A stretch of 64,000 bases of DNA from Oscillatoria sp. FACHB-1406 (GCF_014698145.1 NZ_JACJSM010000001.1:216633-280632), one strand, 5' to 3'; positions 2,840 to 51,809 are shown, counted from the stretch's first letter. The notes: generated by a model from the letters alone, not told the origin. Made by a program: numbers and translations.

Positions 2840-2907
2840 ATAATGAATAATGAATAATGGATAATGGATAATGGATAATGGATAATGGATAATGGATAAT
2901 GGATAAT
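2840..2907. repeat. heptanucleotide tandem array (ATAATGA x2 then ATAATGG x~8)
   Basis: Read directly: taatgaataatgaataatggataatggataatgg..., immediately after the ABC transporter stop codon. Confidence 0.9.
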
Positions 2908-2923
2908 TGTTATAGGAAATCCG

Positions 2924-2985
2924 GTAGGGTGGATAGCGCCCACCAGTCAAGACTTTCAGCCTTTAGAAACGTACATTCACGTTTT
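2924..2985. repeat. dispersed palindromic element, family B (GTAGGGTGG-N-CCCACC hairpin plus AAACGT-ACATTC-ACGTTT hairpin)
   Basis: A near-identical ~60 bp copy occurs at 63688-63750. A related copy with a ~120 bp insert occurs at 43588-43727. Confidence 0.7.
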
Positions 2986-3018
2986 GAGTATCGTTATAAT
3001 TAATAATTTTTTGAGGTT

Positions 3019-3435
3019 ATGGAAAGAGGTTTATTGTGGTTGCCCTTGCTAGTTCTTTTTTTCTGGTTGGCTTGGGCGGGATGGAATGAGTATCAAAAAC
3101 TGGAAGCTTACCGAGGATGGGCGGAAAGTTTCGATCGCGCTAAGTACGATATTTATGCAGTTTTGGGGCAAAAAGATGATACAATAACATGGGGAAAACC
3201 GACTCGCAAAGGCCCGATCGATCTTCAGAGTTTTTCCCTCAAGGATGTTGAATTGGTGCGGGTTTTAGTGGGAGAACGCGCGATCGATTGGGATGCGCCG
3301 CCTGCTAGAGGTTCTGCCGCGATCGAGTTCCAATTTGCTAACGCGAAACCGGCGGTACAAATTCCCTTCACCGAAATTCCCCTCGCCTTACAATGGGCTA
3401 AGTTTTTAGATAGCCAGTCTGCTACTCGCTCTTGA
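3019..3435 (+). CDS. hypothetical protein with N-terminal TM anchor
   Basis: 138-aa ORF with plausible codon usage and a hydrophobic N-terminus (LLWLPLLVLFFWLAWAGW). Confidence 0.55.
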   Translation: MERGLLWLPLLVLFFWLAWAGWNEYQKLEAYRGWAESFDRAKYDIYAVLGQKDDTITWGKPTRKGPIDLQSFSLKDVELVRVLVGERAIDWDAPPARGSAAIEFQFANAKPAVQIPFTEIPLALQWAKFLDSQSATRS

Positions 3436-3480
3436 GAAGAGCGCTCTCAGTTGGTAGAGTATTATAGCTATTCCAGCCCT

Positions 3481-4497
3481 CTAATTCCCATCGCTAACTC
3501 CCCACTCAAACCCCATTCCCTCAATTTTTTTCAATAGTTCTGGTAGCACGATTTCATTACTCTCTGCTAATAAATCGCTTTCTAAAATTTCACGCGCTCT
3601 CAAAAAAGATTGCGCTCCTATGTGATTTCCGGCATGAAAAACTAGCTTGTCGATTTGATTTAAATGGGCAGCAAGCAATTGAAGCAAAGTCATCAAAACG
3701 CGATTTCCGCCGTAAGCACCGCAGCCCCAGAATCCGGTATGAATAATGACTTGGGGCTTATTAGCCGCCTCGATTTGCGATTCGAGCCTTGCCGCCGCAA
3801 ACCCCGTAAATGCCGTTGAAAGAATGTATTCAATATCTTCTAATAAATATTGTCTGTATCCGCCAAAAGGTGCTTCCATTGCAATCAAATTGGTTCGCGT
3901 TGGCGGATTGAGTTGTGTTGTCGCGCGAGCGATGGCTTCTGGCGATGCTTTCGCAAACTGATTGCCGTACAATCCGTAAGGTCGCCCTGCTTTTTCGTTC
4001 GGTTCGGTAGCAACAGCGCAACGCCGTTCAACTCCTCGGATGAGGATAGGAGTGGGCTGCGCGCTTTCAACGGTAAGGGGTTCGATTGCGGCTGCCAATA
4101 ATGCTTCTCGTAGTGCGCCGAGGGCGGGATGTTCGGCAGCTTGCATCTCATCTTGGGCAAATAACGGCCCACTGTAAGCGCAAAATAGATTGGAGTGGGC
4201 AAAGTTGAGATACCATTCCACTGAGGCATTAGAGGGCGATTCGTAGGTGAAATGGTCTTCGCGAACTTCGAGTTCGGTTTGAATCGGTGTAGGAGCAACG
4301 GTTGGCGGTAAAGGCATCGTTTTCCAACGGGAAAAAACGATTTCACCGCTATGCGTCGCTTCCGGGGGAGAAGCGATGTCAAAAACGATCTTCTTGTTCG
4401 GGTTCTTAACTTTTGGAGGATGAGAATCCATCAAGTTTTGCGCTGCGAAAGTGTGCCGACAGATCGGAGCGTTAGCATCTTGATTCATAGTCTTCAA
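3481..4497 (-). CDS. PARG-like macrodomain protein (poly(ADP-ribose) glycohydrolase family-like), catalytic motif divergent
   Basis: 338 aa. HTGFWGCGAYGGNRVLMTLLQLLAA closely matches the canonical PARG diphosphate-binding loop (NWGCGAFGGD..L..LIQ.LAA). The upstream segment NFAHSNLFCAYSGPLFAQDEM aligns with the PARG GGG-X6-8-QEE catalytic signature but reads CAY...QDE. 31 bp downstream of the GT2 gene on the same strand. Confidence 0.5.
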   Translation of the reverse strand: MKTMNQDANAPICRHTFAAQNLMDSHPPKVKNPNKKIVFDIASPPEATHSGEIVFSRWKTMPLPPTVAPTPIQTELEVREDHFTYESPSNASVEWYLNFAHSNLFCAYSGPLFAQDEMQAAEHPALGALREALLAAAIEPLTVESAQPTPILIRGVERRCAVATEPNEKAGRPYGLYGNQFAKASPEAIARATTQLNPPTRTNLIAMEAPFGGYRQYLLEDIEYILSTAFTGFAAARLESQIEAANKPQVIIHTGFWGCGAYGGNRVLMTLLQLLAAHLNQIDKLVFHAGNHIGAQSFLRAREILESDLLAESNEIVLPELLKKIEGMGFEWGVSDGN

Positions 4498-4528
4498 CTT
4501 CCTACTGCTGTACTGATTTTATTATTGC

Positions 4529-5374
4529 TCAGCAATGACGAGCTTCCCCCTCCTTTTCCTGTTGCTGCAATTCCCAAACTTTCAACGTAATCAAGTATTC
4601 ATAGAAAAATTGCAGCGAACACCAATGAAAACCCGCCCTTCCATCCAAGATTCCCCCCAAAATAAAATACATATATAAGAAACGAACCACGGGGCGCAGG
4701 GGCAAGCGCAGGGATAAATCTTTGAGGGCGCGGCGGCGTTCGATTTCCGAGCGTCCTAAAAAGAGTTCCTTCCAACGGACATCCCCTGCTTGTAACTGAA
4801 ACAGTGTTTCTTTGGCTTCGTCGCTGGAGTAACGATTGTGTTTGTCAATCCAGCGACTAAAACCCTTGCCCGAGGTGTAGTGGGGGTAGGTTTCCTTTAA
4901 AAAACCTGTGGGACCATCGCAGACTTCGCGCTCGGTATGCCCGTAATCACTAAACCAAACTTTCCCTTTAAGAAACAGGCGCATTTGGTAGCGAGGATAC
5001 TGGGTGCAGTGACGAATCCAACGATTCATGAACATGACGCGCTCGGCAGCGTAGTAGCCGATAAACTCGTCGGATTGAGTCGCTCGATCGCATTCGGCGA
5101 ATAATTCCGGGGTCATGCGTTCGTCAGCTTCGAGGATGTAAGCCCAGTCGTATTTTGTCGGCACTTCCTCGAGCATCCAAGTCCGCTGGCGGCCGTGACT
5201 TTCAAAGACGTGCTGGATAACGCGAACGCTTTCGTAACTTTTGGCAATTTCAACGGTGCGATCGCGGCTGTAAGAATCTACAACAATAATATCGTCACAT
5301 AAGGAGATAACGGACTCGATACAGCCGGCTATCTCCACTTCTTCGTTATAAGTGAGGATGTAAACGGAGAACAT
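4529..5374 (-). CDS. family 2 glycosyltransferase
   Basis: 281 aa. N-terminus MFSVYILTYNEEVEIAGCIESV...IIVVDSYSRDRT is a typical GT2 (GT-A fold) start with a DxD-like motif. Confidence 0.8.
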   Translation of the reverse strand: MFSVYILTYNEEVEIAGCIESVISLCDDIIVVDSYSRDRTVEIAKSYESVRVIQHVFESHGRQRTWMLEEVPTKYDWAYILEADERMTPELFAECDRATQSDEFIGYYAAERVMFMNRWIRHCTQYPRYQMRLFLKGKVWFSDYGHTEREVCDGPTGFLKETYPHYTSGKGFSRWIDKHNRYSSDEAKETLFQLQAGDVRWKELFLGRSEIERRRALKDLSLRLPLRPVVRFLYMYFILGGILDGRAGFHWCSLQFFYEYLITLKVWELQQQEKEGEARHC

Positions 5375-5527
5375 TCAACAGCAAGGATGGTGTAAAGATT
5401 TCAGTCGAAGGAAGAAAACGGCATTGATTACACGGCAGCGATAGCGACTTTGCCTCCTTCGGTTGACAGGGAATGCGAGAGTTTGTTCTGGCGAACCGCA
5501 ATTCCCTTAAACTCGCCGACTTAAACT

Positions 5528-6319: not shown

Positions 6320-6697
6320 AGCCTCTTGGAATGCTTAGTCGATCTTTAAGAGTTTTTAACGTTATGCCAGAAATAATTTCCGGGTAAAATGCTAAACTCA
6401 TCAATCCTGACATAATCCAGACGCTAATGGCTAGCGCAATAGTAGAGGCTTCATAAATCGGCTCGAGAGTTGAGGCTAAAAATGCTTTCTGGCGTAAGCT
6501 GCTTGGTTCTATACTCTATACCCAGCTTGACTGCTAGCCTTTCAAGGGCAGTCATTGCTTTCTGTCGGTTCGCGTTTGCCCGATCGCGCTGGAAATATAA
6601 AATTTTTGTGAAGTTCTACGGGATTGCCGGGGGCTGTTAAGACGATGGAGTCAGAAGTCTTGAGGCAAGCCCCTTCTCTTTTTAAGATTCCCTCAAA

Positions 6698-7432: not shown

Positions 7433-7559
7433 AGCACGGGAAACAAGGGCGAACTGAATGCGATGATAGGATTGACTGCAACTGCTCTATTCCCCTCCGG
7501 TTCACCTGCCCGCTGTTTTCTGATAACTGTTCACCGATAACCGATAACTGACAACTATT

Positions 7560-8324
7560 ATGATTGTTTGCCCGAATTGCAATCACCAAAATCCCGAAAG
7601 TGCAACTCAGTGCGAAGCTTGCTATACACCGCTGCCCGTCACTACGAACTGCCCGAACTGCGGCGCAACGATTCAAGAAGATGCAAGTTTCTGCGGTCAA
7701 TGCGGCTATAGCCTCAAACCGCCCACGGGACAGGCAACTATCGCCGTTAATCCGGACGAGAACGCTATTCCGGAACCCCTTCCGTCCACAGCAATCAATG
7801 CTCCTTCTCCGGCGGCCAGCGCGCCCGATCTCGAACCCATCCCCAGCGCGCCGCCCTCCGTTACGCCGCCCCCCATCCCCAGCACCCCGATGGCAGCAGA
7901 AGCAGAAGCAGAAAGCCAGATTCCTGAAGTTCCCCCCAGTGCGCCGCCTCCTGCACCGCCAGCCCCCGCCGGAAATTCTGCTACTCAGCTTCAACTCGAG
8001 CAAGCTAGCTTGTTCCACGTTCAAACTAACTCTAAAATCGAGCTTCCCAGCCAACTGTCCGTGATTCATATCGGCAAACCGGGCGGGGCGATCCCGGCTG
8101 ATATTGACGTTTCCGGTTTCCCAGATTCCAGCGTCGTTTCGCGCGTTCATGCCGATATTCGCGTTGAAGGCGGTATCTATTACCTCGAAGATGTGGGCAG
8201 TTCTAACGGCACGTATGTCAACCATACGCCCTTACCTCCCGGCAATCGCCACCGCTTGCGAGCAGGCGATCGCATCGCCCTTGGCAAAGAAGATAAAGTG
8301 ACGTTCATTTTCCAACTCTCCTAG
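7560..8324 (+). CDS. FHA-domain protein with N-terminal double zinc ribbon and Pro-rich linker
   Basis: CPNCNHQNP..CEAC and CPNCGA..CGQCGY Cys pairs, a Pro/Ala-rich low-complexity middle, and a C-terminal FHA signature (SRVHADIRVEGGIYYLEDVGSSNGTYVN...GDRIALG). Confidence 0.8.
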   Translation: MIVCPNCNHQNPESATQCEACYTPLPVTTNCPNCGATIQEDASFCGQCGYSLKPPTGQATIAVNPDENAIPEPLPSTAINAPSPAASAPDLEPIPSAPPSVTPPPIPSTPMAAEAEAESQIPEVPPSAPPPAPPAPAGNSATQLQLEQASLFHVQTNSKIELPSQLSVIHIGKPGGAIPADIDVSGFPDSSVVSRVHADIRVEGGIYYLEDVGSSNGTYVNHTPLPPGNRHRLRAGDRIALGKEDKVTFIFQLS

Positions 8325-8813
8325 CACCAACACCAAGAAACCCGGTTTTAACGAAGAAGTAGAGACCTATCACCGAAATCGGGTTTCTTGGGATTGTGAG
8401 TTGCTTAAAGAAGTGTGACATTTATCCCGAATCTTAACTGAATATTGTAGAAAAATTAGGGTTTGCGATTACAATAAGAGCTATACACCCTCAAGCAATT
8501 CGCGGCATGGATAATCTCTCCCCAACGCGAGTCGCAACTGATGACTGCCTATCGTATTTCAGTTGGATTGACAATAAAAAAAAGCTGGAACACTTTCGCT
8601 CTAAGGTAATGCGAACTCGCCTAAAGTGAATTGAAGTCTTAATGTTGCAGTTTGGAGAAATCTAGACTTGCTAAGGGTAAAGTAACAGGGCATTTAAGGG
8701 ACGTTTTGCCTCATTTTTCAGCAGCGTATGGCAAGAATAACAACGCCCTCGAACGAGGTCAATCGTTTCCTGAAAATGCGAACCTTACAATCGTAATAAT
8801 TGGAGCAGTGCAT

Positions 8814-9467
8814 ATGAAGCTTTTAATCCAGGGCAATAATATTGTCGTTACGGAAGCGATCGATAATTACGTGAAGGAGAAGCTGGAAAAAGCCGTTAAG
8901 CACTTTCAGAATTTGATTACAACAGTTGACGTTCATTTATCCGTTGCTAAAAATCATCGAGTTAGTAATAGTCACAAAGCCGAAGTAACCGTTCATGCGA
9001 ATGGCTCGACAATCCGAGCGCAGGAAGGGAGTGAAGATTTGTATGCAAGCATTGATTTAGTTGCCGATAAAATTGCGCGTCAACTCCGCAAATATAAGGA
9101 AAAAATGCTAGATCGCACCCACGTTCAACCGAAAACCGGTGAAATGGTGGCCGAATATCCGGTGGTTGAAAATTTAATTGGCGATCGCCACGTCGAACTG
9201 CCCGAGCGAGTCGTGCGCACGAAATACTTCGCGATGCCGCCTATGACAATTGAAGAAGCCCTGATACAACTCCAATTAATCGATCATGACTTCTATGTGT
9301 TCCGCAACAGTGAAACCGACGAAATTAACACGGTATACTGCCGCAATCACGGCGGATATGGCGTAATCATCCCGCGCGCGAACGGCAACGGCAATGGCAC
9401 TCGTAACGGCAAAACCGCTCAAGCGCGAACCGATGAAAAAGAACATCAATCCTCCCCTCAACGCTAA
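8814..9467 (+). CDS. hpf: ribosome hibernation promoting factor, long form (LrtA-type)
   Basis: [27 protein letters not shown]... is typical HPF/RaiA, with the C-terminal extension of long HPF. GGAG lies 8 nt upstream of ATG 8814. The track start at 8652 is a TTG giving an unlikely N-terminal extension. Confidence 0.85.
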
Positions 9468-9503
9468 TCTCGTCTCGAGCGATTAAACGGAGCAATCTAC
9501 AAA

Positions 9504-9546
9504 AAATCCCCCACCTAACAAGCGCTATGGGAGGGGGATTTTTTGG
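9504..9546 (+). terminator. rho-independent terminator of hpf
   Basis: Stem ATCCCCC (9506-9512) pairs with GGGGGAT (9533-9539), followed by TTTTTT. Confidence 0.8.
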
Positions 9547-9549
9547 GCA

Positions 9550-9638
9550 TAATTCGTAATTCGTAATTCGTAATTCGTAGTTCGTAATTCGTAATTCGTA
9601 GTTCGTAATTCGTAATTCGTAATTCGTAATTCGTAATT
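9550..9638. repeat. heptanucleotide tandem array (CGTAATT/CGTAGTT, ~13 units)
   Basis: Read directly. Generates the spurious ORF 9367..9651 (LRITNYELRITNYE...). Confidence 0.9.
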
Positions 9639-9648
9639 TAGCACTTAG

Positions 9649-9693
9649 CATTCATAACTCATTATTCATCATTCATTATTCATTATTCATCAC
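9649..9693. repeat. degenerate heptamer array (TTCATAA/CATTATT/CATTCAT)
   Basis: Read directly, adjacent to the CGTAATT array. Confidence 0.7.
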
Positions 9694-10331
9694 TCCTTCC
9701 GTCCCGACACAGAATGTTCTCTTCCGGGTAAATTTTCCATTGTCGCGAGAACCGCGCGTTCTGCTGCGAGAATATCCCGTTCTTCGCCGCCGAGATACAT
9801 CCGCCCGAAACTGCCGATCGCGGAAATTTGGATAATATTAATCGAAGCGGCTTTTTCAGCTTCATTCGCAGCCAAAGCTGCATAGGCAGCCGGTTCGACT
9901 TCAAACACATACAGGGTTTGTCCGGCAACAATCATCTGTCCCCGACGCGCGCGGTTAATTAACTGGACGTGATGCGCGTCCAAATTGCGAATCACCTGAC
10001 TCGATACGACGCGAGGCTTGAGGCAATCTCGGGCGTGCGCCCCCAAATAGTCTAAAATTGCTACGCCCGCCGTGCGGGTATCTCCTTGGCGACTCGAATG
10101 AATTTCCAGAACGCCATACAAACGTTCGACCATGAGTACGCCGGGACGAACCGCAGTAGATTTCAGGGCAATATCGGTAATACGGTGAATTTCGATCCCC
10201 GGGGAAATTTCTATCCACAGTGAAGAATCTCCCGGAAGCGGTAGAAATCCTAAAGCGACCGTTCCAATATAAGCGGCGTGTTGGGGTTGTAAGCTGTCGA
10301 TATAGACGTAACTGCGAAGTTCGATGCCCAA
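9690..10331 (-). CDS. ccmP: tandem-BMC-domain carboxysome shell protein, CcmP-like
   Basis: 213 aa. [29 protein letters not shown]...EISPGIEIH and the second half ...[20 protein letters not shown]... match my recollection of Synechococcus CcmP (two BMC-like domains, ~213 aa). Confidence 0.6.
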
Positions 10332-12905: not shown

Positions 12906-12976
12906 GGCTTAGGGGAGCTTTTTTGGGGGAGTTTAAGCTAAGGCGCATTTAAATTCGGCAGACTCAATCTCCCCCT

Positions 12977-13101
12977 CGTAATTCGTAATTTGTAATTTGT
13001 AATTCGTAATTCGTAATTCGTAATTCGTAATTCGTAATTCGTAACTCATAATTCCTAACTCATAACTCATAATTCATAACTCATAACTCATAACTCATAA
13101 T
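12977..13101. repeat. compound heptamer array (CGTAATT/TGTAATT ~10 units, then CTCATAA/TTCATAA ~8 units)
   Basis: Read directly between the asnS stop and the uvrC GTG start. Confidence 0.9.
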
Positions 13102-13111
13102 TTATCCCTCC

Positions 13112-15004: not shown

Positions 15005-15065
15005 TTTCTTTGCCCGTAATTCCGAATGATGGGGTTAATAATTTTGCGGGTTGAACGGTGGATTA

Positions 15066-15092
15066 ATTTTTAATTTTTAATTTTTAATTTTT
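15066..15092. repeat. heptamer array (TTTTTAA x4)
   Basis: Read directly in the convergent gap between uvrC and the ABC-class ATPase. Confidence 0.8.
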
Positions 15093-16791
15093 CCACCCGT
15101 AATGTCCGCAATCGATTTAAAGCTGCCGCTAGTTCAAAACGGCGGAATCCAGCCAAGTCGCCACGCGGAAAGTCGTCAATCGCATCGAGTCCTTGTGCTT
15201 CGAGATCTGCAAAGATGCGATCGATAATTTCTGCTAGGGTTCTTTTGCCGTCGATATAGCAATCTTTAGCATAAACGAGAGCCGCCGCGATCGCGCGCAA
15301 TTGTCCCGCATCGACAAGCTGTTCCACCGCCGCTAAATCGATGTCCTCCGTACCAAACGCCACTTCATCAACATCGCGCACCTTAACTTTTACCGCCCGG
15401 TTGCCGCGACTGGGATCGATACTGCTAGCAATGGGAATTCTGGGGGTAATGCGCCCAAATCTCTCGCCGCCCTCGCACTGGCGTTCGCTGGCGTATTCTT
15501 TCGCAATCGCTTTGGCTTCAGCGGTGACATCGCGCGCTTGAAAGTTATCCATCGCAATGACGATATCGGCGACTTCAAAATAATCGCCGCTTCCGCCCAT
15601 CACCAGCAAGGTAGATACGCCATAGTCGCTGTAGAGTTGGCGAACTTTATCGATGAAAGGGGTAATCGGTTCTTTGTCTTTGGCGATGAGTTGCTGCATC
15701 CGGCGATCGCGAATCATTAAATTCGTTGCCGCCGTATCCTCATCTATCAATAATACCTCCGCGCCCGCCTCCAACGCTTCGATAATATTCGCCGCTTGAG
15801 ACGTGCTACCGCTGGCATTGGTGGTAGAAAAATTTAGCGTCGAACTGCCACCCGGTAAGTTATCGATAAAGGGCGAAATATCAGTTCCAACGATGCTGCG
15901 CCCGTCTTCAGCGCGAATTTTCATCGCAGCGGGGTGAGTAACGACGAATTCGCGCCCATCCCCCGGAATGCGATTGTATACGCCCAACGCGATCGCGCGC
16001 AACAAGGTAGACTTACCGTGATAGCCGCCGCCCACAATCAGCGTCACGCCCGCCGGAATGCCCATCCCGGCAATCTTACCGCGATTGGGACAATCGAACT
16101 CGACTTGTAGCGAGGGGGGCGATTGGAAAGGAAGCGCCCCTTCCTTTAAAGGACGTTCGTCTACGCCACTCCGTCGGGGTAAAATTGCACCGTTCGCCAC
16201 AAAAGCCACTAAATTTCGCCGCACTAACTCCTCGCGCAACCAATCGGCATCTTCCACCGTTTCGACGTGCTGTTGTAGCGCTTTCGCATCAACAGCAATA
16301 TATTGCAGCGCGCCGCGCACAATATTAGGGATATCTTCGCATAATAATTCTGCCGCTTGTCTGCCGAGAATTTGACGGCCGCGCGCGGGCAATCCAACAA
16401 CAAATCGCGCTTCAATCTCGCCCTCATTGACTAAAATCGCCGTTCTCGCCAGCACTTCTTGCCCGAGGTGGGCGATGGCAATGAGTCCGCTTTTCCCCGT
16501 ACCGCGATGCGAACTGAGTTTTTGGGCGACGCACTCGAAGCGGCGGGCGAGATAGTCTCGCAGGGCGATTTCGCGGCTGGGGGAGGCATAAAGTTGGGGG
16601 GGCAATTGGGCAAAATTTTGGGGAACCTGCACTCGCAACTGACTGGGAGAGGCAAAAGGATCGCCTTGAACGCGATCGATAATCAGGGTAAATTCTGGAA
16701 AAGAATAGCGCCCCTTAATATCTTTGTAAGCTTTATAACCCCTAGCGTCTAAGTCGAGGAGTGTACTGTAAAGAGAGGAGGAGTCGCGCAT
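15070..16791 (-). CDS. ABC-class ATPase domain protein (COG3044-type)
   Basis: 573 aa. N-terminus YKAYKDIKGRYSFPEFTLIIDRVQGDPFASPS. Walker A GGGYHGKSTLLRAIALG. Confidence 0.6.
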   Translation of the reverse strand: MRDSSSLYSTLLDLDARGYKAYKDIKGRYSFPEFTLIIDRVQGDPFASPSQLRVQVPQNFAQLPPQLYASPSREIALRDYLARRFECVAQKLSSHRGTGKSGLIAIAHLGQEVLARTAILVNEGEIEARFVVGLPARGRQILGRQAAELLCEDIPNIVRGALQYIAVDAKALQQHVETVEDADWLREELVRRNLVAFVANGAILPRRSGVDERPLKEGALPFQSPPSLQVEFDCPNRGKIAGMGIPAGVTLIVGGGYHGKSTLLRAIALGVYNRIPGDGREFVVTHPAAMKIRAEDGRSIVGTDISPFIDNLPGGSSTLNFSTTNASGSTSQAANIIEALEAGAEVLLIDEDTAATNLMIRDRRMQQLIAKDKEPITPFIDKVRQLYSDYGVSTLLVMGGSGDYFEVADIVIAMDNFQARDVTAEAKAIAKEYASERQCEGGERFGRITPRIPIASSIDPSRGNRAVKVKVRDVDEVAFGTEDIDLAAVEQLVDAGQLRAIAAALVYAKDCYIDGKRTLAEIIDRIFADLEAQGLDAIDDFPRGDLAGFRRFELAAALNRLRTLRVEKLKIKN

Positions 16792-29500: not shown

Positions 29501-31561
29501 GCTTCTAACCAGGAATTTGAAGCGCTGCTGGAAGGGTTGAGGGCGGTCAAACAATTAAAGGCAGAACCGCCGATTCGCCAGAAACCGTCCTTGCAAGCCT
29601 TGCATTTACCGACCGATACCGCGACGGACATTAAAACCGATACGCGCTTAAAAGTTTTAACCGTTCTCGAACAAGCTTTATACGGAACGTTGGAACGGAA
29701 TCGCTTAGAAGGTCATAGCGATGTCGTCTGGGGGGTCTGTTTTTCGCCGGACGGACAGCGCATTGCAACAGCGAGCTTGGATAGAACGGTTAAGGTTTGG
29801 CATCCTGACGGCCGCCTGCTAACGACACTGTTCGGTCATCGGGATAGCGTCACAAGCGTTGATATCAGTCGGGATGGTAGTATTGCTTCGAGCAGTTGGG
29901 ATGGGACGGTTCGCCTTTGGAACGTTGATGGAACGCCCGATTTGGCGATTCAGGCACATCGGGGCCGCGTCTACAGCGTTCGCTTCAGTCGGGATGGGGA
30001 AATGTTGGCGAGTGCGGGCGCAGATGGAATGGTAAAAATTTGGTCGCGCCAAGGCCGGTTGTTGCAAACTTTATCGGGGCATCGAGGGGAAGTGAGTTGG
30101 GCGAGCTTTAGTCCCGATGGCAGCGAGATTGCTTCCGTGGGACAGGATGGGACGCTGCGCTTGTGGAAGATTGGGGGGCAAGTTGTTAAGGTGGTGCGCG
30201 CTCATCAGGAGGCGGCGAACTATGTGGTTTTTAGCCCGAAGGGAGATGTGCTGGCGACGGCGGGCGAGGATCGCGCCGTGAAGCTTTGGAGTCGGGATGG
30301 GCGCTTACTGCGGGTACTGTCGGGGCATCAGGGTAGCGTTCACGCGATCGCGTTTAGTCCCGATGGCCAACGGTTGGCTTCGGCGAGTAATGACAATACG
30401 ATCGCGCTCTGGAACCGTCAGGGGCGTTTGTCGAGCGTGTTGAAGGGACATAGCGATCGCGTTACGGGCGTGGGCTTCAGTCCGGATGGGCTGACGCTGG
30501 TGTCTTCGAGTTTCGACAAGACGATTAAGCTCTGGACGCTCCAGAAGCGCTCCCGCGTCGTACTGCGAGGACATCGCGATCGCGTCCTGGATGTTGTCTT
30601 TTCTCCCGATGGGGATATAGTGGCCACCGCGAGCAAGGATAAAACCGCAAAGTTGTGGACGCGCCAAGGACAATTGCTGGCAACTTTAAGCGGACACCGC
30701 GATTCGGTGTTAGCGGTTGCTTTTTCGCCCGATGGCGAGCGAGTCGCCACCGCGAGTAAGGATAAAAGCGTGAAAGTGTGGACGCGGCGGGGGCAATTGT
30801 TACAAACGCTTTCCGGTCACGGGGATTGGGTTCTGGATGTGGAGTGGTCGCCCGACGGTCAATGGTTAGCAACGGCGAGTCGCGATAAAACCGTGAAATT
30901 ATGGAGCCGCGAGGGGAAATTGCGTCAAACTTTGAGCGGACACCGCGATCGCGTTAATGCGGTTGCGTTTAATGCCGACGGTAGCTTACTGGCTTCCGCC
31001 AGCGACGATCGCACGATTAAGCTTTGGCGCTTCCACCGGAAGTTGCGTAGCGGCAGGCCAGAAGATGGGGCTTTTGACCCGCAACCGCTCTCAACGTTGA
31101 AAGGGCATAGCAACTGGGTTCTCGATGTTACTTTTTTGCCGCCGCGAGCCGATGGTCGTGCTTCTCCCCTTTTGGCTTCTGCGAGTTACGATAACACCGT
31201 CAAATTTTGGAGCGATCGCGAAATGCTTTACACGCTCAAAGGTCATACCGATAGCGTTGCCCATCTCAGCTTTAACCCCACGGGCGAAATTTTGGCGACT
31301 ACAACTTGGAGCAGCGAAGTCCAATTATGGCGATTAGACGATACTCTGCTTAAAACCCTCGAAGGTCATAGCGATCGCGCCACCAGCGTGGCTTGGAGCC
31401 AAGATGGAAACGCCCTCGCCACCGCCAGCGAGGATAAAACCGCGATAATTTGGAATTTTGATGAGGAACAATTGGCTAAAAATGCTTGCGATTGGCTCCG
31501 CAATTACATTCACAATAGCAATGAAGTCAGGAGGAGCGATCGCCAATTGTGTACGTCATAA
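26546..31561 (+). CDS. giant nSTAND-type NTPase / WD40-repeat protein
   Basis: 1671 aa. ~550-aa helical/TPR-like N-terminal region. P-loop GPSGAGKSSLLHAGLVPAL. Hydrophobic helix LTIGGICALFALSAVYLSL. Then ~14-16 WD40 repeats (GH..V..V.FSPDG...AS.S.D.T.KLW), two 7-bladed propellers, from ~29700. Confidence 0.85.
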   Translation: MCTTNPPHLVSQSNDRSLSILARAILLGRYQFALILVRCNYERLQRQMWQGLQQELRSQSEAEVRLREIRFSSSTPALFDTLLSVVEAEIAAQPEEAAPQPSRRCNLDALMVFGLESAEDLERVLADTNQVREEFRKHFTCPVVLWATDEVLQKMTRFAPDFKSWASAAIKFEQAIEDSIQLWWEIVARLFRELLDSGAKRFVSNAELGLAPGSRDRRELECARLEVLAAHIELSEMVEAIWAFILGRDAYNEGRIQEALEQYQRSLEFWGQGSEDRVANAVPSAPNIANPFLEQKGLLLYHLGLCYCYEAREHPNRSRQCATQARLCFSDSLEIFTLKERPEAIANLTVQLGQVLQQLEYWHELQALARGALTQSTIYHTPEVRARAYGFLARGALARGNPEAARILALKALGIHERASTANSLGEALYSYLLARSQYELGQTMEAIALLERARSAIAPKTIASEGEVQPTTEKETLYLEILEMLRSLYFQQHQYELAFTLKQEQQRVEQACGLRAFYGLSSPTGEGDRLPSYYPTEILAFGRQRDVEALLERVRRSEHKLTILHGPSGAGKSSLLHAGLVPALWDEIIAAREILPAIQTTYNDWQQGLSRAFSRSLTLRERKLGQPQTLPDLLSPAAILDFLQSSSQGNLLVVIVFDQFEEFFYNCPQREDRRAFYRFLCDSLSIPFVKVILCLREDCLHELLAMEREMDWGIVDNDLLDRQVRYALADLSLEAAAGVVKRLTERSHFHLENDLIERFVCDLADSQQTIRPIELQVVGSALQAEKITLLQEYRQLGSNPKTILVERWLQSAIADCGPENEEVVWQVLYALTDSQGLRLLKTQAELARAVRSERTRKQRSETLPSPPLTSILKILVGSGLVSRLREESDERYQLVHGYLVGRIRQQYSDRTSRAIATQLSGSKAEVTRARKQRLHALTIGGICALFALSAVYLSLQTETQRRLATIVSRNAELMALSASSEALFASNQEFEALLEGLRAVKQLKAEPPIRQKPSLQALHLPTDTATDIKTDTRLKVLTVLEQALYGTLERNRLEGHSDVVWGVCFSPDGQRIATASLDRTVKVWHPDGRLLTTLFGHRDSVTSVDISRDGSIASSSWDGTVRLWNVDGTPDLAIQAHRGRVYSVRFSRDGEMLASAGADGMVKIWSRQGRLLQTLSGHRGEVSWASFSPDGSEIASVGQDGTLRLWKIGGQVVKVVRAHQEAANYVVFSPKGDVLATAGEDRAVKLWSRDGRLLRVLSGHQGSVHAIAFSPDGQRLASASNDNTIALWNRQGRLSSVLKGHSDRVTGVGFSPDGLTLVSSSFDKTIKLWTLQKRSRVVLRGHRDRVLDVVFSPDGDIVATASKDKTAKLWTRQGQLLATLSGHRDSVLAVAFSPDGERVATASKDKSVKVWTRRGQLLQTLSGHGDWVLDVEWSPDGQWLATASRDKTVKLWSREGKLRQTLSGHRDRVNAVAFNADGSLLASASDDRTIKLWRFHRKLRSGRPEDGAFDPQPLSTLKGHSNWVLDVTFLPPRADGRASPLLASASYDNTVKFWSDREMLYTLKGHTDSVAHLSFNPTGEILATTTWSSEVQLWRLDDTLLKTLEGHSDRATSVAWSQDGNALATASEDKTAIIWNFDEEQLAKNACDWLRNYIHNSNEVRRSDRQLCTS

Positions 31562-31655
31562 ATAATTGATAATGGATAATGGATAACGAATTGGATAATT
31601 GACAATGGACAATGGATAACGTTTTGAATAATTGACAATGGACAATGGATAACGT
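31561..31655. repeat. degenerate ATAATGG/ACAATGG heptamer array with ~31-bp higher-order duplication
   Basis: Read directly after the WD40 gene stop. aattgacaatggacaatggataacg occurs twice. Confidence 0.75.
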
Positions 31656-31704
31656 TTGAATTCGTGAGATGAAATGAGGGTCAAGTCGCGTTGCCCCAAT
31701 TCTT

Positions 31705-31736
31705 AATTACGAATTACGAATTACGAATTACGAATT
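31705..31736. repeat. heptamer array (AATTACG x~5), reverse complement of the CGTAATT family
   Basis: Read directly. Same family as 9550 and 12977 but in inverted orientation. Confidence 0.85.
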
Positions 31737-31741
31737 ATTTC

Positions 31742-32293
31742 TCATTCTTCATCGAAGTCGGCGCGAATTAATTCTACGGCATCGCGTCCGTCGCTTTCTT
31801 GCAAGTATACCTTCACTTTTTCTTCGGCTGCTGTTGGCAGTTGTTTGCCGATAAAATCGGGGTGAATGGGCAGTTGGCGATGGCCGCGATCGATTAAAAC
31901 AGTCAAACCGATAATTTCGGGTCGTCCGTATTCTAAAACGGCATTGAGGGCGGCTCTAGCAGTGCGTCCTTTAAAAATAACATCATCGACTAAAATGACA
32001 ACTTTATCGGTCAAGTCGAAGGGAATTTGAGTTTTGGCGGGGGTTCGCATTCCGACGCGATCGAGATCGTCTCGATAAAGGGTAATATCGATCGCGCCAA
32101 CGGGAATTTTAATGCCTTCAAGCAGTTCGATTTGAGCCGCGATCGCGCGAGCGAGGGGAACGCCGCGCGTATGAATACCGAGCAAAACCAACTTAGTCGG
32201 CTCGTCGAATTTTTCCACAACTTGCGACGCAATCCGATTCAAGGTTCTGCGAATTTCTTCAGCCGAGAGAATTTCAATAATTTTAGCTGGCAT
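31742..32293 (-). CDS. pyrR: bifunctional pyr operon regulator / uracil phosphoribosyltransferase PyrR
   Basis: [24 protein letters not shown]...; PRPP-binding [19 protein letters not shown]. Start taken at the internal ATG (32293) rather than the track's 32353. Confidence 0.85.
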
Positions 32294-32357
32294 TTTTTGT
32301 ATTAAACAAAGATTGGATATTTGCCCGATCGCGAATTCCCAAATTTTAAACAAGTGA

Positions 32358-34303: not shown

Positions 34304-35068
34304 ATGCAAGTCTCAACAACCCCTCTTCCGCATCCTACTGCCGTTCGCGGCTATATCCACTCTTTTGAAAGCTGCGGTACTGTCGATGGCCCGGGCATTC
34401 GCTTTGTCATCTTTACCGCTGGTTGTCCCCTGCGATGTCTTTATTGCGCCAATCCCGACAGTCGTTACATGAAAAACGGCAAGGTGATGTCGGTGGACGA
34501 GTTAATTCCGGAGATTCAGAAATACACGACTTACATGAGAACCTCTGGGGGCGGCGTTACCGTCAGCGGTGGCGAACCACTCTATCAACCCCATTTTGTC
34601 GCAGAAATCTTTAGGCGCTGCAAGGCGTTGGGGATTCATACCGCCCTCGATACTTCCGGACATTGCGAGTTGCATTTAGCGAAAGCGGTTCTCGAGTATA
34701 CCGATCTCGTCCTCCTCGATATTAAATCTTTCGATCGCGCCCTGTTTGAGAAAGTGACGAGCGTTAATCTCGAACCCACCCTAGAAATGGCGCGTTACCT
34801 CGATGAAATCGGCAAACCGACTTGGATTCGCTTTGTTCTCGTTCCCGGTTTAACCGACGCTGCGGACAATGTTTGCGGGTTAGCCGATTTTGTGGCGACG
34901 CTGAACAATGTAGAAAAAGTGGAAGTTTTACCGTTCCATAAAATGGGCGAGTATAAGTGGGAACAGTTAGGTTATGACTACCAACTCCAGCAAGTCGAAC
35001 CGCCGACGCGATCGCAAATTGAAGTCGTTCTCGATATTTTCCACAGTCGAGGCATTAACGCAGTTTAA
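34304..35068 (+). CDS. pflA: pyruvate formate-lyase activating enzyme (radical SAM)
   Basis: 254 aa. Radical SAM motif CPLRCLYCAN and the preceding G-rich DGPGIRFVIF. Confidence 0.85.
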   Translation: MQVSTTPLPHPTAVRGYIHSFESCGTVDGPGIRFVIFTAGCPLRCLYCANPDSRYMKNGKVMSVDELIPEIQKYTTYMRTSGGGVTVSGGEPLYQPHFVAEIFRRCKALGIHTALDTSGHCELHLAKAVLEYTDLVLLDIKSFDRALFEKVTSVNLEPTLEMARYLDEIGKPTWIRFVLVPGLTDAADNVCGLADFVATLNNVEKVEVLPFHKMGEYKWEQLGYDYQLQQVEPPTRSQIEVVLDIFHSRGINAV

Positions 35069-35134
35069 ATGAATGATGAATAATGATTTGCTGCAATCGG
35101 AACGCAACACTTTCCTCAAAATCTTGGAGCAATT

Positions 35135-45543: not shown

Positions 45544-45560
45544 TCGCATTGAAATAAGAA

Positions 45561-45612: not shown

Positions 45613-45992
45613 TATCTGGCGTTTCAACTTAGAAAAAGCTACAAGTTCCCCCCACCAAAAGCCGAACGGCTGGGGAAGACGCAAACAATTGAGTAATCTC
45701 AAACTTTACATAGACATCTCTCAATTCAATAGAGATTGGCCAATTGTAGTTATAACTTATTTAAAAGATTGGCATATTTGTTATGGCAACATAACCGTTA
45801 AAATAACATTTAATCCAATGCCAAGCGATTCCAAGCTCTATTGAGTTCTGGTTTAGTTCTGGCATAGATAAAGCTTTGTACACTACAAAACAGCAAAAGA
45901 AAACGCTTTTTAGCAATTTCATTTTGTGACATTTGCTCCATAAATTATTCTGGGGCGCGATTTCGGTGCAAATATTTTTAAGATAGCGAGAG

Positions 45993-47984: not shown

Positions 47985-48196
47985 GAATTAGAAAGGTGGG
48001 AGCGATAAGATCGCTCCTAATAGAAAACCCTTGGGAGTCTTGCCGTGTTTCGACCCCAAGGATTTCCTAGCTCACTATTCCTCACACACAAGTTGATTAT
48101 GCGGCAGATTTTTTATCGGGAAAGGGGTAAGGTGACACTTTTCAAAGTGTCTGAGGTCACAGGGAGTGGCAAAGAGATGTAAACGCTCGCTGTGAT

Positions 48197-49051
48197 TTAC
48201 GCGAAGACGACGGTACGATTGCTGTAGACGAGGACGCGATTTTGCAGGTGCAGGCGCACGGCGCGCGAGAGGACGAGGCGTTCGACATCTTTTCCCTTAC
48301 GGATTAGATCCGCAACGCGATCGCGGTGAGTGACGCGCACGACTTCTTGTTCGATAATTGGCCCTTCGTCGAGGTCGGCGGTGACGTAATGGGCGGTAGC
48401 ACCGATGACTTTAACGCCGCGTTCGTAGGCGCGCTCGTAAGGATTTGCACCGGGAAAAGCGGGCAAGAATGAGTGATGAATATTAATAATACTAGGGAAT
48501 TTTGCGACAAATTCCGGGCTGAGAATTTGCATATATTTGGCGAGAACAACTAGATCGATTTGATAGCGATCGAGGATTTCTAGTTGTTTTTCTTCTTGCT
48601 CTTTTTTATTTTCTTTTGTAATATTAATATGATGATAATCAATATTAAATTGTTTGGCAATCGGTTCGAGTTTGGAATGATTGCTAATAATTAAGGGGAT
48701 TTCGCCAGGAAGTTCTCTGGCGCGATCGCGCCAAAGTAGATCGAGCAAACAATGATCTTGCTTTGTCACCCAAATCGCGATACGGGGGACTTTATCGGAG
48801 AAATGCAGCGTCCATTCGGCTTGTAAGGGTTTCGCGATCGCGCCGAAAGCCACCGCGATCGCCGAGCGCGGCAAATTAAACCCTTGCAACTGCCACTCAA
48901 CGCGCATTAAAAACAAGCCCGTCGCAAAATCGGTATGTTGGTCGGCATGAATGATATTGCCACCATTCGCGTAGATAAAATTCGCAATTTTAGCGACAAT
49001 TCCTTGACCGTCAGGACAGGAAATTAAGAGTGTAGCAGTCGGACAATTCAT
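48197..49051 (-). CDS. purU: formyltetrahydrofolate deformylase
   Basis: 284 aa. N-terminal ACT domain and formyltransferase core (HHSFLPAF, ATAHYVT..LDEGPII). Confidence 0.85.
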   Translation of the reverse strand: MNCPTATLLISCPDGQGIVAKIANFIYANGGNIIHADQHTDFATGLFLMRVEWQLQGFNLPRSAIAVAFGAIAKPLQAEWTLHFSDKVPRIAIWVTKQDHCLLDLLWRDRARELPGEIPLIISNHSKLEPIAKQFNIDYHHINITKENKKEQEEKQLEILDRYQIDLVVLAKYMQILSPEFVAKFPSIINIHHSFLPAFPGANPYERAYERGVKVIGATAHYVTADLDEGPIIEQEVVRVTHRDRVADLIRKGKDVERLVLSRAVRLHLQNRVLVYSNRTVVFA

Positions 49052-49052
49052 T

Positions 49053-49096
49053 AGATAATGGATAATGGATAATGGATAATGGACAATGGATAATGA
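49053..49096. repeat. heptamer array (ATAATGG x~6)
   Basis: Read directly. Begins 2 nt upstream of the purU start codon. Confidence 0.9.
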
Positions 49097-49140
49097 TATT
49101 AAACTAAAACAATCTCATCCAGATATCCCACAAATCTTTC

Positions 49141-49250
49141 CCTCTCTCCATCACCCCGTCCCCCTGTCCCCTCGTCACCCCATCCCCCCATCACCCCATC
49201 ACCTCATCCCCCCATCACCCCGTCACCCCGTCACCCCATCTCCCTCTCAG
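49141..49250. repeat. C-rich 7/8-bp array (CCCCATCA / CCCCGTCA units)
   Basis: Read directly: catcaccccgtccccctgtcccctcgtcaccccatcccc... Adjacent to the ATAATGG array. Confidence 0.8.
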
Positions 49251-49549
49251 TCCTCCTCAGTCGGTTCGAGTTCTTCCGGCGGAAGATTGAGGGTTAAAGC
49301 TTGCAACTTCAAGCGAGCGATGTAAGGCCAGCCGCCAGTTTCTTCAATATCCTTGATTAATTTATAGAGATCGTGGCGAGTATTAGGCAAGGAAGCTTGA
49401 AACAGTTCCTCTTGAATCGTGCGATGCGATTGCTCCAAAGAGCGAAGCAGCGCCAATAGTGCCAGCGTGTCTCCCCGACATTCTTGTGCCAGAGCAAGAA
49501 CGGTTTGAGCCAGAGTTTCTAGGCGAGTGTCAAGTTGCGTGCGGTCCAA
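49247..49549 (-). CDS. hypothetical protein
   Basis: 100-aa ORF with reasonable codon usage. Its 3' end overlaps the C-rich array. Confidence 0.4.
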   Translation of the reverse strand: MDRTQLDTRLETLAQTVLALAQECRGDTLALLALLRSLEQSHRTIQEELFQASLPNTRHDLYKLIKDIEETGGWPYIARLKLQALTLNLPPEELEPTEED

Positions 49550-49871
49550 GCTGAGCGATCTCCGTTTATTGTCAATTAAAAATTTCCCTTAAATATCTTA
49601 CGCGAGGGCGTTCCAACTGGTGCGTTACCGAATTTGCTGTTTGAGGGGGGAGCAGTGTAATTCGTAATGGATAGTCTTTCATCCCTTGTCGCTTCGTTAC
49701 CCCTAGCGGGAGCCGATAGATTTCCGTATGGAAAGGTCGCGCAGCCGTGTACAATGCTGTAAATGCTATCGTTATGCCTGTTAGACGCGATCGCGCACCC
49801 CTGCGATCGTGAGGGCAGAACGATTTTTAAATAAGACCGAATTAAGAGATTGACAAACACGAGGTTAGACC

Positions 49872-50705
49872 ATGAGGTATCGCGCATTGATTGTAGCTTT
49901 CCTGGCTCTATGCTTAGGATTGCTAACCGCTTGCGGTTCGGGACCCGCCCAAGCCACGACCAGAGAACAACTAACTTACGATGATATTCTCGGAACGGGC
50001 TTGGCAAATACCTGTCCTCAACTCTCGGGAACAACTCGCGGTTCTATTCCTATTGAAACTGGGAAAAAATACGAACTGACAAATTTGTGCATAGAACCCC
50101 AAGAGTATTTCGTGAAGGCAGAGGGAACCAAGCGCAAAGAAGCCGCTTTTATCCCCGGTAAAGTGTTAACCCGCTACACCACCGCTCTCGATCAAGTCAG
50201 CGGCAAAATTCTGCTCAACGGCGATGGAACCTTAACTTTCAAAGAAGAAAGTGGTATTGACTTCCAACCGATCACGGTTTTACTCCCGGGCGGTGAAGAA
50301 GTTCCTTTCATGTTCACCATGAAGAGTTTAGTGGCAACCACGCGCAGTACGGCAGACTCGATTAATTCTTCGACCGATCTCCGGGGCGAATATAAAGTAC
50401 CTTCCTATCGCGGTGCGGTATTCCTCGATCCTAAAGGTCGCGGTGTTGCTAGTGGCTACGATACGGCAGTCGCACTCCCCGCTCAAGGCGATAGCGAAGA
50501 ATACGCACGCTCCAACACCAAGCGGATTCCGGGCGGACGGGGCGAAATGGAACTTCAAGTCACCCGAGTCGATAGCAATTCGGGGGAAATTGCTGGCGTT
50601 TTTGAAAGCATTCAGCCTTCAGATACGGATTTAGGCGCTGCTGACCCCGAAGAAGTCAAAATTCGCGGTGTTTTCTACGGAATCGTAAGTGCCGTAGACG
50701 AATAA
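49872..50705 (+). CDS. psbO: photosystem II manganese-stabilising protein
   Basis: Signal peptide with a lipoprotein-like LTACGS. Mature N-terminus ...LTYDDILGTGLANTCPQL and overall PsbO features. 277 aa. Confidence 0.9.
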   Translation: MRYRALIVAFLALCLGLLTACGSGPAQATTREQLTYDDILGTGLANTCPQLSGTTRGSIPIETGKKYELTNLCIEPQEYFVKAEGTKRKEAAFIPGKVLTRYTTALDQVSGKILLNGDGTLTFKEESGIDFQPITVLLPGGEEVPFMFTMKSLVATTRSTADSINSSTDLRGEYKVPSYRGAVFLDPKGRGVASGYDTAVALPAQGDSEEYARSNTKRIPGGRGEMELQVTRVDSNSGEIAGVFESIQPSDTDLGAADPEEVKIRGVFYGIVSAVDE

Positions 50706-50733
50706 AATCTTCTAGTCCGTTGATTGAAAAAGT

Positions 50734-50760
50734 GAGGGATAGTCGTCCCTCCTTTTTTTT
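50734..50760 (+). terminator. rho-independent terminator of psbO
   Basis: GAGGGA (50734-50739) pairs with TCCCTC (50746-50751), followed by eight T. Confidence 0.8.
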
Positions 50761-50964
50761 GACAAATTTTTCTCGAAAGTTCCTAAGAAATACGAATTGC
50801 CTCCAGTCGAGTTTGGGATATAAACTTGAGGAGAGAAAATAACTGAGGGCGCTCGGCGGCGATCGCGAAAGACGAAAATAACCATGACGAGGGCGCTCGA
50901 TCTAACAAATTGGAGAGATATCGATCGCAGTTGGAGCAGTCCCGAGGCAGTAAGATAGATTCTA

Positions 50965-51777
50965 TTGTGGCGGGGTAAACCGCTCGTATCATTGACTATG
51001 GCTATGTCTACCACCATCCATTCGAGTTTAAAAGAACAAAGCTTGCACCTTCTAGTCGAGTACCAGAAGACGAAAAAGGTTGACTTGCGCGATCGGCTAG
51101 TGCGACTCAATATTGGTTTGGTGAGACGAGAAGCACATCATTGGACTAACCAATGCAGCGAAACTTATGAAGATTTATTACAGGTCGGTTGTATCGGTTT
51201 GATTCAAGCGATCGATCGCTTCGACCCGACCAAAGGCTACGCTTTTAGCTCCTTCGCCATTCCCTACATCCGAGGCGAAATTCAACATTACCTGCGCGAT
51301 AAAAGTACCTCCGTGCGGATTCCCCGGCGCTGGCTAGAGTTGCGCCATCAAGCAAGCAATACCGCGCGAGAACTCAGAATCCAACTGCACCGCCAGCCCA
51401 CCGATGAAGAAATCGCGCGATCGCTCGGAGTCGATCCCCAAGAGTGGGAAGAAATCCAACTCGCCTATCAAAATCGCGAACCCCTCAGCTTAGACGTTCC
51501 CGTCGGTAACGATGAGGACGAAAGCGTCAGCTTAGCGGAATTAGTCCCCGATCCCCAATACCGCAGCTTCCAACTCGCCCAAGAAGATCGCCTTCGTCTC
51601 CAACAAGCCCTCGTCCAACTCGAACAGCGGACGCGAGAAGTGGTGGAATTTGTCTTTTTGCACGATCTCACCCAAAAAGAAACCGCCGAACAGTTAGGGA
51701 TTAGCGTCGTCACCGTTTCCCGCCAGGTAAAGAAAGGGTTGAAGGCATTGAAAAATCTAATGCTGATGGAACTCTAG
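50965..51777 (+). CDS. RNA polymerase sigma factor, group 3 (SigB/SigF/SigG-type)
   Basis: 270 aa. Region 2 (DLLQVGCIGLIQAIDRFDP), region 3 and region 4 HTH (LTQKETAEQLGISVVTVSR). The start may be an internal ATG. Confidence 0.8.
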   Translation: MWRGKPLVSLTMAMSTTIHSSLKEQSLHLLVEYQKTKKVDLRDRLVRLNIGLVRREAHHWTNQCSETYEDLLQVGCIGLIQAIDRFDPTKGYAFSSFAIPYIRGEIQHYLRDKSTSVRIPRRWLELRHQASNTARELRIQLHRQPTDEEIARSLGVDPQEWEEIQLAYQNREPLSLDVPVGNDEDESVSLAELVPDPQYRSFQLAQEDRLRLQQALVQLEQRTREVVEFVFLHDLTQKETAEQLGISVVTVSRQVKKGLKALKNLMLMEL

Positions 51778-51778
51778 G

Positions 51779-51809
51779 AATTAAAAATTAAAAATTAAAA
51801 ATTAAAAAT
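51779..51809. repeat. heptamer array (AAAAATT x~4.5)
   Basis: Read directly, 2 nt after the sigma factor stop. Confidence 0.8.

Follow-up and report, generated by a model that had tools for sequence, protein, structure and literature searches.

Tandem heptanucleotide arrays between the genes of a 64-kb segment of the Oscillatoria sp. FACHB-1406 genome

We describe here a set of tandem heptanucleotide arrays in a stretch of 64,000 nt from the genome of Oscillatoria sp. FACHB-1406 (GCF_014698145.1 NZ_JACJSM010000001.1:216633-280632); the whole of this stretch is referred to as the window, and positions are counted from its first letter. The host is a filamentous cyanobacterium, and the window contains 91 HIP1 (GCGATCGC) sites together with a psbO gene. 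The genes that flank the arrays are functionally unrelated, and are those for an ABC transporter, hpf, asnS, uvrC, an ABC-class ATPase, a STAND/WD40 protein, a phosphoribosyltransferase, purU, psbO and a group-2/3 sigma factor.

Tandem Repeats Finder (TRF), run over the entire window, recovers an array at every one of the ten positions named in an initial annotation of this DNA, and at nine of these the array has period 7 (scores 60-164). Perfect period-7 runs of at least three copies number 10 in the window, compared with 0.00 expected from 100 second-order Markov simulations; chance is excluded, and the annotation was correct in calling these real tandem arrays. It had also held that all are 7-bp periodic, which fails for the array at 49148-49244 (A9), a C-rich octamer with period 8/16/24. 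The window has no perfect run of three copies or more at periods 4, 5 or 8-12, and the two at period 6 are both within open reading frames (ORFs). These hexamer runs, (AGCAGA)x3.2 at 7895-7913 in the FHA/zinc-ribbon gene and (ACCGCC)x6 at 54512-54547 in ORF 54282-54875, fit the rule that coding DNA tolerates frame-preserving periods only. The annotation's list lacked A1 and the two weak arrays w1 and w2, and with these the 13 arrays (Table 1) are dispersed across 51 kb of the window without forming an island.

Table 1. Tandem arrays in the window. Stops refer to termination codons in each of the three frames.
Array	Coordinates	Strand	Unit and copies	Setting	Properties
A1	969-993		(AATTTTT) x3.6	53 nt 5' of ABC-transporter gene start (1046)	stops on both strands
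A2	2840-2907	+	TRF ATAATGG x9.7: (ATAATGA)x2 then (ATAATGG)x7.7	0 nt past TAA stop of ABC-transporter gene 1046-2839(+); 111 nt 5' of ORF 3019-3435(+)	stops on + only; unstructured as RNA
w1	7522-7548	+	weak (GATAACY) x3.9	5' of FHA/zinc-ribbon gene 7560-8324(+)	75% matches, marginal
A3a	9550-9638	+	(TAATTCG) x12.7, two TAGTTCG variants	begins 3 nt past terminator hairpin 9500-9546, 82 nt past stop of hpf 8652-9467(+)	
A3b	9649-9692	-	on +: (TCATTAT/TCATCAT/TCATAAC) x6; on -: (ATAATGA)-type; TRF 9650-9690, ATTCATT x5.9	overlaps TGA stop (9690-9692) of ORF 9690-10331(-)	stops on - (sense) strand only
A4	12976-13102	+	18 units, TCGTAAT then TCATAAC; in order TCGTAAT x2, TTGTAAT x2, TCGTAAT x5, TCGTAAC, TCATAAT, TCCTAAC, TCATAAC/TCATAAT x6	between asnS (stop 12905) and uvrC (GTG 13112); upstream end 70 nt past asnS stop	
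A5	15063-15092		(TTAATTT) x4.3	between convergent uvrC (stop 15004) and ABC_ATPase gene 15070-16791(-)	
A6	31561-31661	+	degenerate ATAATGG/ACAATGG heptamers; 33-bp higher-order unit x3.1 (TRF 31562-31661)	start is last base of TAA stop of STAND/WD40 gene 26546-31561(+)	
A7	31705-31737	-	on +: (AATTACG) x4.7; on -: CGTAATT	ends 4 nt from stop of phosphoribosyltransferase gene 31742-32353(-)	stops on - (sense) only
w2	35068-35086	+	(AATGAAT) x2.7; unit type as A3b(-)	start is last base of stop of radical-SAM gene 34304-35068(+)	
A8	49054-49095	+	(GATAATG) x6, one GACAATG variant	2 nt from ATG (49049-49051) of purU 48197-49051(-)	on purU sense strand (CCATTAT)n, without stops, ATG or RNA structure
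A9	49148-49244	-	C-rich octamer, CCCCATCA-like, period 8/16/24; on - strand (TGATGGGG)n	2 nt past stop of ORF 49247-49549(-)	G-rich (-) strand satisfies G3+N1-7 x4 G-quadruplex motif, by sequence
A10	51779-51809		(AATTAAA) x4.4	whole 31-nt gap between convergent sigma-70 gene (stop 51775-51777) and ORF 51809-52618(-)	stops on both strands; unstructured

That the arrays are artefacts of short-read assembly is a notion to which we give practically no credence. The assembly is a draft, in which the longest array (127 bp) could have an imprecise number of copies, but no array exceeds 127 bp, each is bounded by unique sequence within a contig of 602 kb, and equivalent arrays are found in many assemblies made independently, some of them at chromosome level (OZ245322, AP018314, AP018227). 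Moreover, the class was originally found by cloning and Sanger sequencing, according to the passages of PMC4692102 that cite Mazel 1990.

The period-7 arrays are either intergenic or overlap just stop or start codons or the last ~7 codons of a gene. Their initial description as starting 0-2 nt from stop or start codons holds, if the limit is put at 4 nt, for one end of nine of the 13 arrays, and the overlap with a stop codon amounts to 1-3 nt in A3b, A6, A10 and w2. It does not apply to A1, to A3a or to A4 at its upstream end, for which the closest codon boundary is 53-82 nt away. Confinement to non-coding DNA was also proposed, and this is nearly so, except that the final ~7 codons of a gene, together with its stop, lie in A5 and that the annotated uvrC start falls within A4. 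The final residues (..KLKIKN*) of the ABC-class ATPase encoded at 15070-16791(-) come from the (AAAAATT)n sequence of A5 (15070-15092), such that a heptamer array has been turned into a protein C-terminal tail. The NCBI model of UvrC (634 aa, MYPSV...) begins at the ATT at 13100, which is the last triplet of A4, with an alternative GTG 12 nt downstream (13112), and it looks as if the start call has been influenced by the repeat. We also note that the gene whose stop is overlapped by A6 codes for a 1671-aa STAND NTPase (nSTAND1) fused to ~14 WD40 repeats.

Within the arrays, identical variants stand side by side, with two copies of ATAATGA at the edge of A2 and two of TTGTAAT in A4, and A4 holds a continuous in-place transition from TCGTAAT through TCGTAAC and TCATAAT to TCATAAC. 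These adjacent variants, the A4 gradient and the 33-bp higher-order repeat of A6 are marks of local amplification, and variant units that grade in place within adjacent blocks fit replication slippage. In addition, a chain of single substitutions, all of whose intermediates are present in the window, runs from TCGTAAT (A3a, A4) to TCATAAT (A4), TCATTAT (A3b) and CCATTAT; TCATTAT is the reverse complement of ATAATGA at the A2 edge, and CCATTAT that of ATAATGG. This chain may represent the history of the families, a suggestion of modest weight that we draw from the unit sequences.

Heptamer arrays of this kind are not peculiar to the window. A scan of 185,579 species genomes for four copies of TAATKSR, a pattern that covers both of the recurring families, gave at least 120 loci. 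Among the matches listed, 58 are cyanobacterial and belong to the Nostocales and Oscillatoriales (Okeania, Dapis, Microcoleus, Planktothrix, Microseira), the others coming from Bacteroidota, Clostridia, Lentisphaeria, Treponema, Planctomycetota and others, and all eight TAATKSR variants form arrays among these listed matches. The same pattern is present at four copies in at least 120 loci of viral contigs (IMG/VR), including giant-virus metagenome-assembled genomes (MAGs), and such arrays were also seen in rumen Prevotellaceae and Ruminococcus MAGs. In 847 kb of loci other than the window there are 230 period-7 runs, a count inflated by the search seed, compared with 22, 3, 5 and 2 at periods 4, 5, 6 and 8; units other than the seed (AACTGAT, AACTGTC, AGGGGCG) are still numerous, and arrays of AACTGAT, equivalent to TAACTGA, co-occur in those 847 kb. 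AT-rich heptamer arrays are far more widespread than the cyanobacterial literature suggests.

Period-7 arrays are also present in the three nearest relatives (UvrC proteins 79-84% identical), at sites that are not orthologous and with other units, among them TTGGTCA and TTACTGA. There is no synteny with the window around uvrC in these three, which precludes a site-for-site comparison of arrays. Relative L121, the closest one sampled, has an octamer array, CCCCATCT x5 at 7750-7791, beside uvrC, whose G-rich strand meets the G3+N1-7 x4 motif, and the relatives also have intergenic arrays of period 9, namely CCCCCTGCT x6 at 27-80 in L121, and TCTCCCCTA x6.5 at 7462-7520 and GGGAAGATG x4.3 at 13854-13892 in L122; one period-9 array is directly 5' of uvrC in Spirulina sp. 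CS-785/01. All-against-all BLAST of 123 loci yields a single informative homologous pair, a Rivularia chromosome (L018, 1044-1100) and a marine cyanobacterial MAG (L036, 3051-3090), which share a 202-aa gene at 89.6% nucleotide identity. One of the two has (GGTAATT)n 20 nt 5' of the start codon, and the other lacks the array and has only a GTTAACA doublet. The homology stops at the array edge, and together with the presence or absence of the array this indicates that arrays turn over faster than their flanks. The high identity across unrelated taxa may reflect a recent transfer, judging from the nucleotide comparison.

The proximity of the arrays to gene ends was assessed by a permutation in which each array was placed randomly within its own intergenic gap, with abutment taken as a distance of no more than 2 nt from an ORF end. 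Abutment is observed for 3 arrays in the window compared with 1.2 expected (p 0.017), for 22 compared with 8.4 +- 1.9 in cyanobacterial loci (p<0.0005), and for 9 compared with 3.2 in non-cyanobacterial loci. Gene-end abutment is real, and is ~2.5-fold above random placement. Some of this excess is mechanical, since any ORF that runs into an array with stops in every frame must end there.

These stop codons raise the question of whether the arrays have been selected as frame-independent barriers at gene 3' ends, providing back-up termination in all three frames. All units in the window have stops in the three frames on at least one strand, every asymmetric array that touches a 3' end in the window carries them in the sense orientation, and in independent cyanobacterial loci there are 17 sense arrays to 5 antisense within 10 nt of a 3' end (p 0.017). 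However, stop-bearing units are not enriched among the arrays over 7-mers drawn at random from those intergenic gaps in which they lie, accounting for 38/53 arrays (72%) compared with 0.68 of the 7-mers (p 0.35) in a test limited to arrays outside the search pattern's selection. The orientation bias also falls with distance, declining to 38:31 by 300 nt, and is what ascertainment would produce, as would simple tolerance of arrays that extend into C-terminal tails a protein can do without. The orientation pattern at 3' ends fits tolerance plus ascertainment rather than a selected stop module, and we consider selection for stop barriers highly improbable. As general all-frame stop modules the arrays are rejected, this being largely refuted by the comparison with random 7-mers.

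The ATAATGG and CGTAATT families do recur in both orientations, as first noted, and this had been taken to imply spread by a common mechanism, a dispersing element. The families could descend from insertions, at gene ends, of an element that is mobile or was transferred horizontally, or could have been spread and homogenised by ectopic gene conversion. Each is present at least three times in 64 kb, A3 and A4 are alike in a two-part layout of CGTAATT-type followed by TCAT-type units, A6 and A8 have the GACAATG variant in common, and arrays with a TAAT core in distant phyla and viral contigs echo the suggestion of horizontal transfer made by MacGregor. The sequences around the arrays tell otherwise. 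When the arrays are masked, the 150-nt flanks of ten loci share matches of just 10-14 nt, at chance level (best BLAST E 0.077). Single units outside arrays are not enriched (TAATGGA, 3 compared with 6.3 expected; TAATTCG, 6 compared with 17), and neither are exact period-7 doublets (4 compared with 3.9). The relatedness of the families is explained by the in-place unit transitions described above, and the formation of arrays by all eight TAATKSR variants across taxa points to AT-rich heptamers as a broad class rather than to a single element. Spread of an element or by conversion is in our view very unlikely, and the masked flanks, singleton counts and unit transition are all contrary to the earlier proposal.

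Neither inverted termini nor target-site duplications were seen at the array loci in the window, and a miniature inverted-repeat transposable element or other small mobile element was rejected on examination for conserved ends, terminal inverted repeats and target-site duplications. An ATAATGG-type fragment in the psbO leader, TAATTCGTAATGGA (49658), had been noted alongside the arrays, but it is one of four TAATNNNTAATNNN doublets outside them, compared with 2.4 +- 1.5 expected, and is not significant. As a proto-array it was set aside, given this chance-level count and the lack of any excess of doublets.

The arrays have little to offer as structured RNA. As transcripts the ATAATGG, CCATTAT, AAAAATT and TTTTTAA arrays have a minimum free energy (MFE) of 0, with all shuffles folding at least as well, and the CGTAATT-type array A3a forms a weak imperfect hairpin of -12 kcal/mol over 89 nt. 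No Rfam family overlaps any array in a search of the whole window. Terminators and structured RNAs were accordingly discarded as candidates, with an MFE of 0 for most arrays, a weak hairpin only for CGTAATT and no Rfam matches. A strong, bidirectional intrinsic terminator hairpin (A6-C5...G5-T6; -24.2 kcal/mol, z -4.4) is present at 9500-9546 between the convergent hpf and ORF 9690-10331, having been missed by a simple terminator scan, and transcripts of ORF 9690-10331(-) would cross A3b and A3a before reaching it. The sole Rfam match in the window is the small RNA Cyano-1, at 48018-48091(-) directly downstream of purU, which matches the full-length model at 52.5 bits relative to a gathering score of 41.

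The main rival to the interpretation favoured below is that some of the arrays have a cis-regulatory role, acting as tandem sites for a protein that binds single-stranded RNA (ssRNA) or DNA with a footprint of ~7 nt, or as modules in untranslated regions (UTRs) that influence mRNA stability, translational coupling or promoter spacing, with copy number serving as a dial in the manner of phase variation. Abutment of start and stop codons above random placement is in keeping with this, as is the fact that A8 stands 2 nt from the start codon of purU and is oriented in the single direction free of both stops and ATGs. Most arrays give the structure-free AU-rich RNA expected of ligands for S1, RNase E or RRM-type proteins, and the ATAATGG array A2 generates periodic sigma70-like matches (TGGATA-17-GATAAT) that face the downstream gene, although these are consensus hits only. 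In Nostoc 7120, heptamer repeats beside start codons and promoters modestly affect reporter regulation, and deletion of heptamer repeats alters the NtcA/LexA-dependent activity of a recO reporter (bioRxiv 10.1101/2022.06.06.494920). Binding by CSP, S1 or Csr has been proposed for TAACTGA repeats (MacGregor 2015, PMC4679880), and transcript stabilisation and translational coupling are among the proposals cited in PMC2670836.

Set against this, nothing in function unites the flanking genes, and one and the same unit is found at 3' ends, at 5' ends and between convergent genes, in both orientations. The relatives carry different units at non-orthologous sites, homologous loci gain and lose arrays, and the orientation bias is gone beyond ~100 nt. 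We know of no binding partner for the arrays. A cis-regulatory role for some of them is compatible with an origin by slippage, and we regard it as unlikely, if the most serious of the alternatives.

A plausible scenario, and the one that we favour with good though not complete confidence, is that intergenic heptamer tracts are born, grow and drift through slippage and are filtered by selection against disruption of reading frames. Slipped-strand mispairing, or unequal exchange, in the course of replication and repair would create arrays and alter their length, point mutations in single units would be amplified locally such that the unit families drift, and, 7 not being divisible by 3, purifying selection would keep the arrays in non-coding DNA. 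Neutral spacer may then be deleted while slippage renews the array, bringing it against the gene ends, and at 3' ends only those orientations with stops in all three frames would be tolerated. Co-transcription of the arrays as UTR segments, AU-rich and unstructured, is probable, and if they affect expression at all this would follow from spacing or from the composition of the UTR, without a dedicated function. This scenario is supported by the period-7 excess, the lack of conserved flanks, the adjacent identical variants, and the homologous loci that have no array or have other units.

Several points weigh on the other side. We infer the slippage step, and slippage alone leaves unexplained both the preference for 7 nt and the recurrence of two unit families at least three times each in 64 kb. 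The recO reporter data from Nostoc 7120 imply that some arrays have cis effects, and the ~2.5-fold abutment could signal a function at gene boundaries. Ascertainment contributes to the signals of abutment and orientation, and the gene calls in loci other than the window are a long-ORF proxy. The comparisons rest on relatives with UvrC no more than 84% identical, these being the next-best after the source, and none is conspecific. The best UvrC match in the JGI metagenomes is likewise 84% identical.

A further and more speculative idea, which we think doubtful, is that the enrichment at gene ends reflects a real boundary process beyond tolerance, whether seeding by template slippage linked to replication or transcription, or a platform in 7-nt register for an abundant ssRNA-binding protein concerned with mRNA 3'-end stability or translational (un)coupling among filamentous cyanobacteria. 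If this were true, the heptamer period would mirror the footprint of the protein or polymerase.

The finding is genuine but ordinary, and carries little weight as a discovery. It shows that a non-heterocystous Oscillatoria bears the load of heptamer repeats long known from the Nostocales, with AT-rich units. Hypervariable microsatellites between genes, the class to which the arrays belong, are typical of filamentous cyanobacteria. The arrays are a hazard for annotation, setting ORF ends and attracting start calls, as with the uvrC ATT inside A4, and they are ready-made markers for strain typing. The ~2.5-fold abutment, the orientation bias at 3' ends only, and the absence of an overall enrichment of stop-bearing units provide testable handles on the purpose of short tandemly repeated repetitive (STRR) sequences.

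STRRs are reported to have been described by Mazel in 1990 as three units, STRR1 CCCCAGT, STRR2 TTGGTCA and STRR3 CAACAGT, which are said to be highly repeated genome-wide with about 100 copies per family, and the original hybridisation survey reportedly tied them to heterocystous cyanobacteria; Rasmussen and Svenning are said to have used them for STRR-PCR fingerprinting in 1998. The TTGGTCA array in relative L121 has what we take to be the STRR2 unit, and the Oscillatoria host is, by its genus, presumably non-heterocystous. The window arrays are like STRRs in being tandem heptanucleotides at many intergenic sites, in several unit families and both orientations, within a cyanobacterial host. 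They differ in that the units ATAATGG, CGTAATT, TCATAAC, TCATTAT, AAAAATT and TTTTTAA are AT-rich and none matches STRR1-3, and in the non-heterocystous host; the arrays belong with STRRs as tandem heptanucleotides, and stand apart from them by the STRR1-3 consensus and by host. The exact unit strings were not found in the searchable literature.

The host distinction is no longer strict, 7-bp STRRs with a function 'still not known' being intergenic in Nostoc, Anabaena and the non-heterocystous Lyngbya majuscula (PMC2670836). Three families of tandem heptanucleotides are reported from Calothrix, by Mazel 1990 as cited in PMC4692102. The resemblance of the AT-rich arrays to STRRs, drawn in the initial annotation, stands, with the class known in both heterocystous and non-heterocystous filamentous hosts (PMC4692102, PMC4679880, PMC2670836).

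TAACTGA repeats near start codons have been reported in marine Beggiatoaceae, cyanobacteria and Bacteroidetes (MacGregor 2015, PMC4679880). The window arrays are similar to these as AT-rich intergenic heptamers with all-frame stops in one orientation, often a few nt from codon boundaries, as well as in a patchy distribution across Cyanobacteria and Bacteroidota and in singletons that are uncorrelated with arrays. However, the units differ, with no TAACTGA array found in the window by TRF and unit dissection, and the BOGUAY arrays are mostly just 5' of start codons whereas the window arrays mostly abut stops. G-rich heptamers, GGGGA(C/T)T and GGGAATC, are known from Nostoc and Xanthomonas (Rehm 2015, PMC4692102). 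Only A9 resembles these, as a G-quadruplex-prone intergenic tract of (TGATGGGG)n on the sense strand by a gene end, with a similar CCCCATCT array in relative L121, but its period is 8 and not 7, and the remaining arrays are AT-rich and incapable of forming G-quadruplexes.

The closest correspondence is with long simple-sequence repeats (LSSRs), defined by Mrazek, Guo & Shah 2007 as tandem repeats of a 1-11 nt unit that are longer than the statistical expectation for the genome, as related in PMC4679880 and PMC4692102. According to these two papers, Mrazek 2007 found heptanucleotides to be the most abundant class of long simple-sequence repeats, with cyanobacterial genomes ranking with the richest in them, and put forward slippage of the polymerase as the cause. 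The window arrays, and those of the 847 kb of other loci, share the period-7 excess, the intergenic bias of periods that are not multiples of 3, the richness of cyanobacteria in such repeats and a proposed origin by slippage, and nothing substantive differs; they are longer than expected and are placed in non-coding DNA, and are LSSRs in the sense of Mrazek 2007. The arrays are STRR-like heptanucleotide LSSRs, and represent a known class with new unit types and in a new host.

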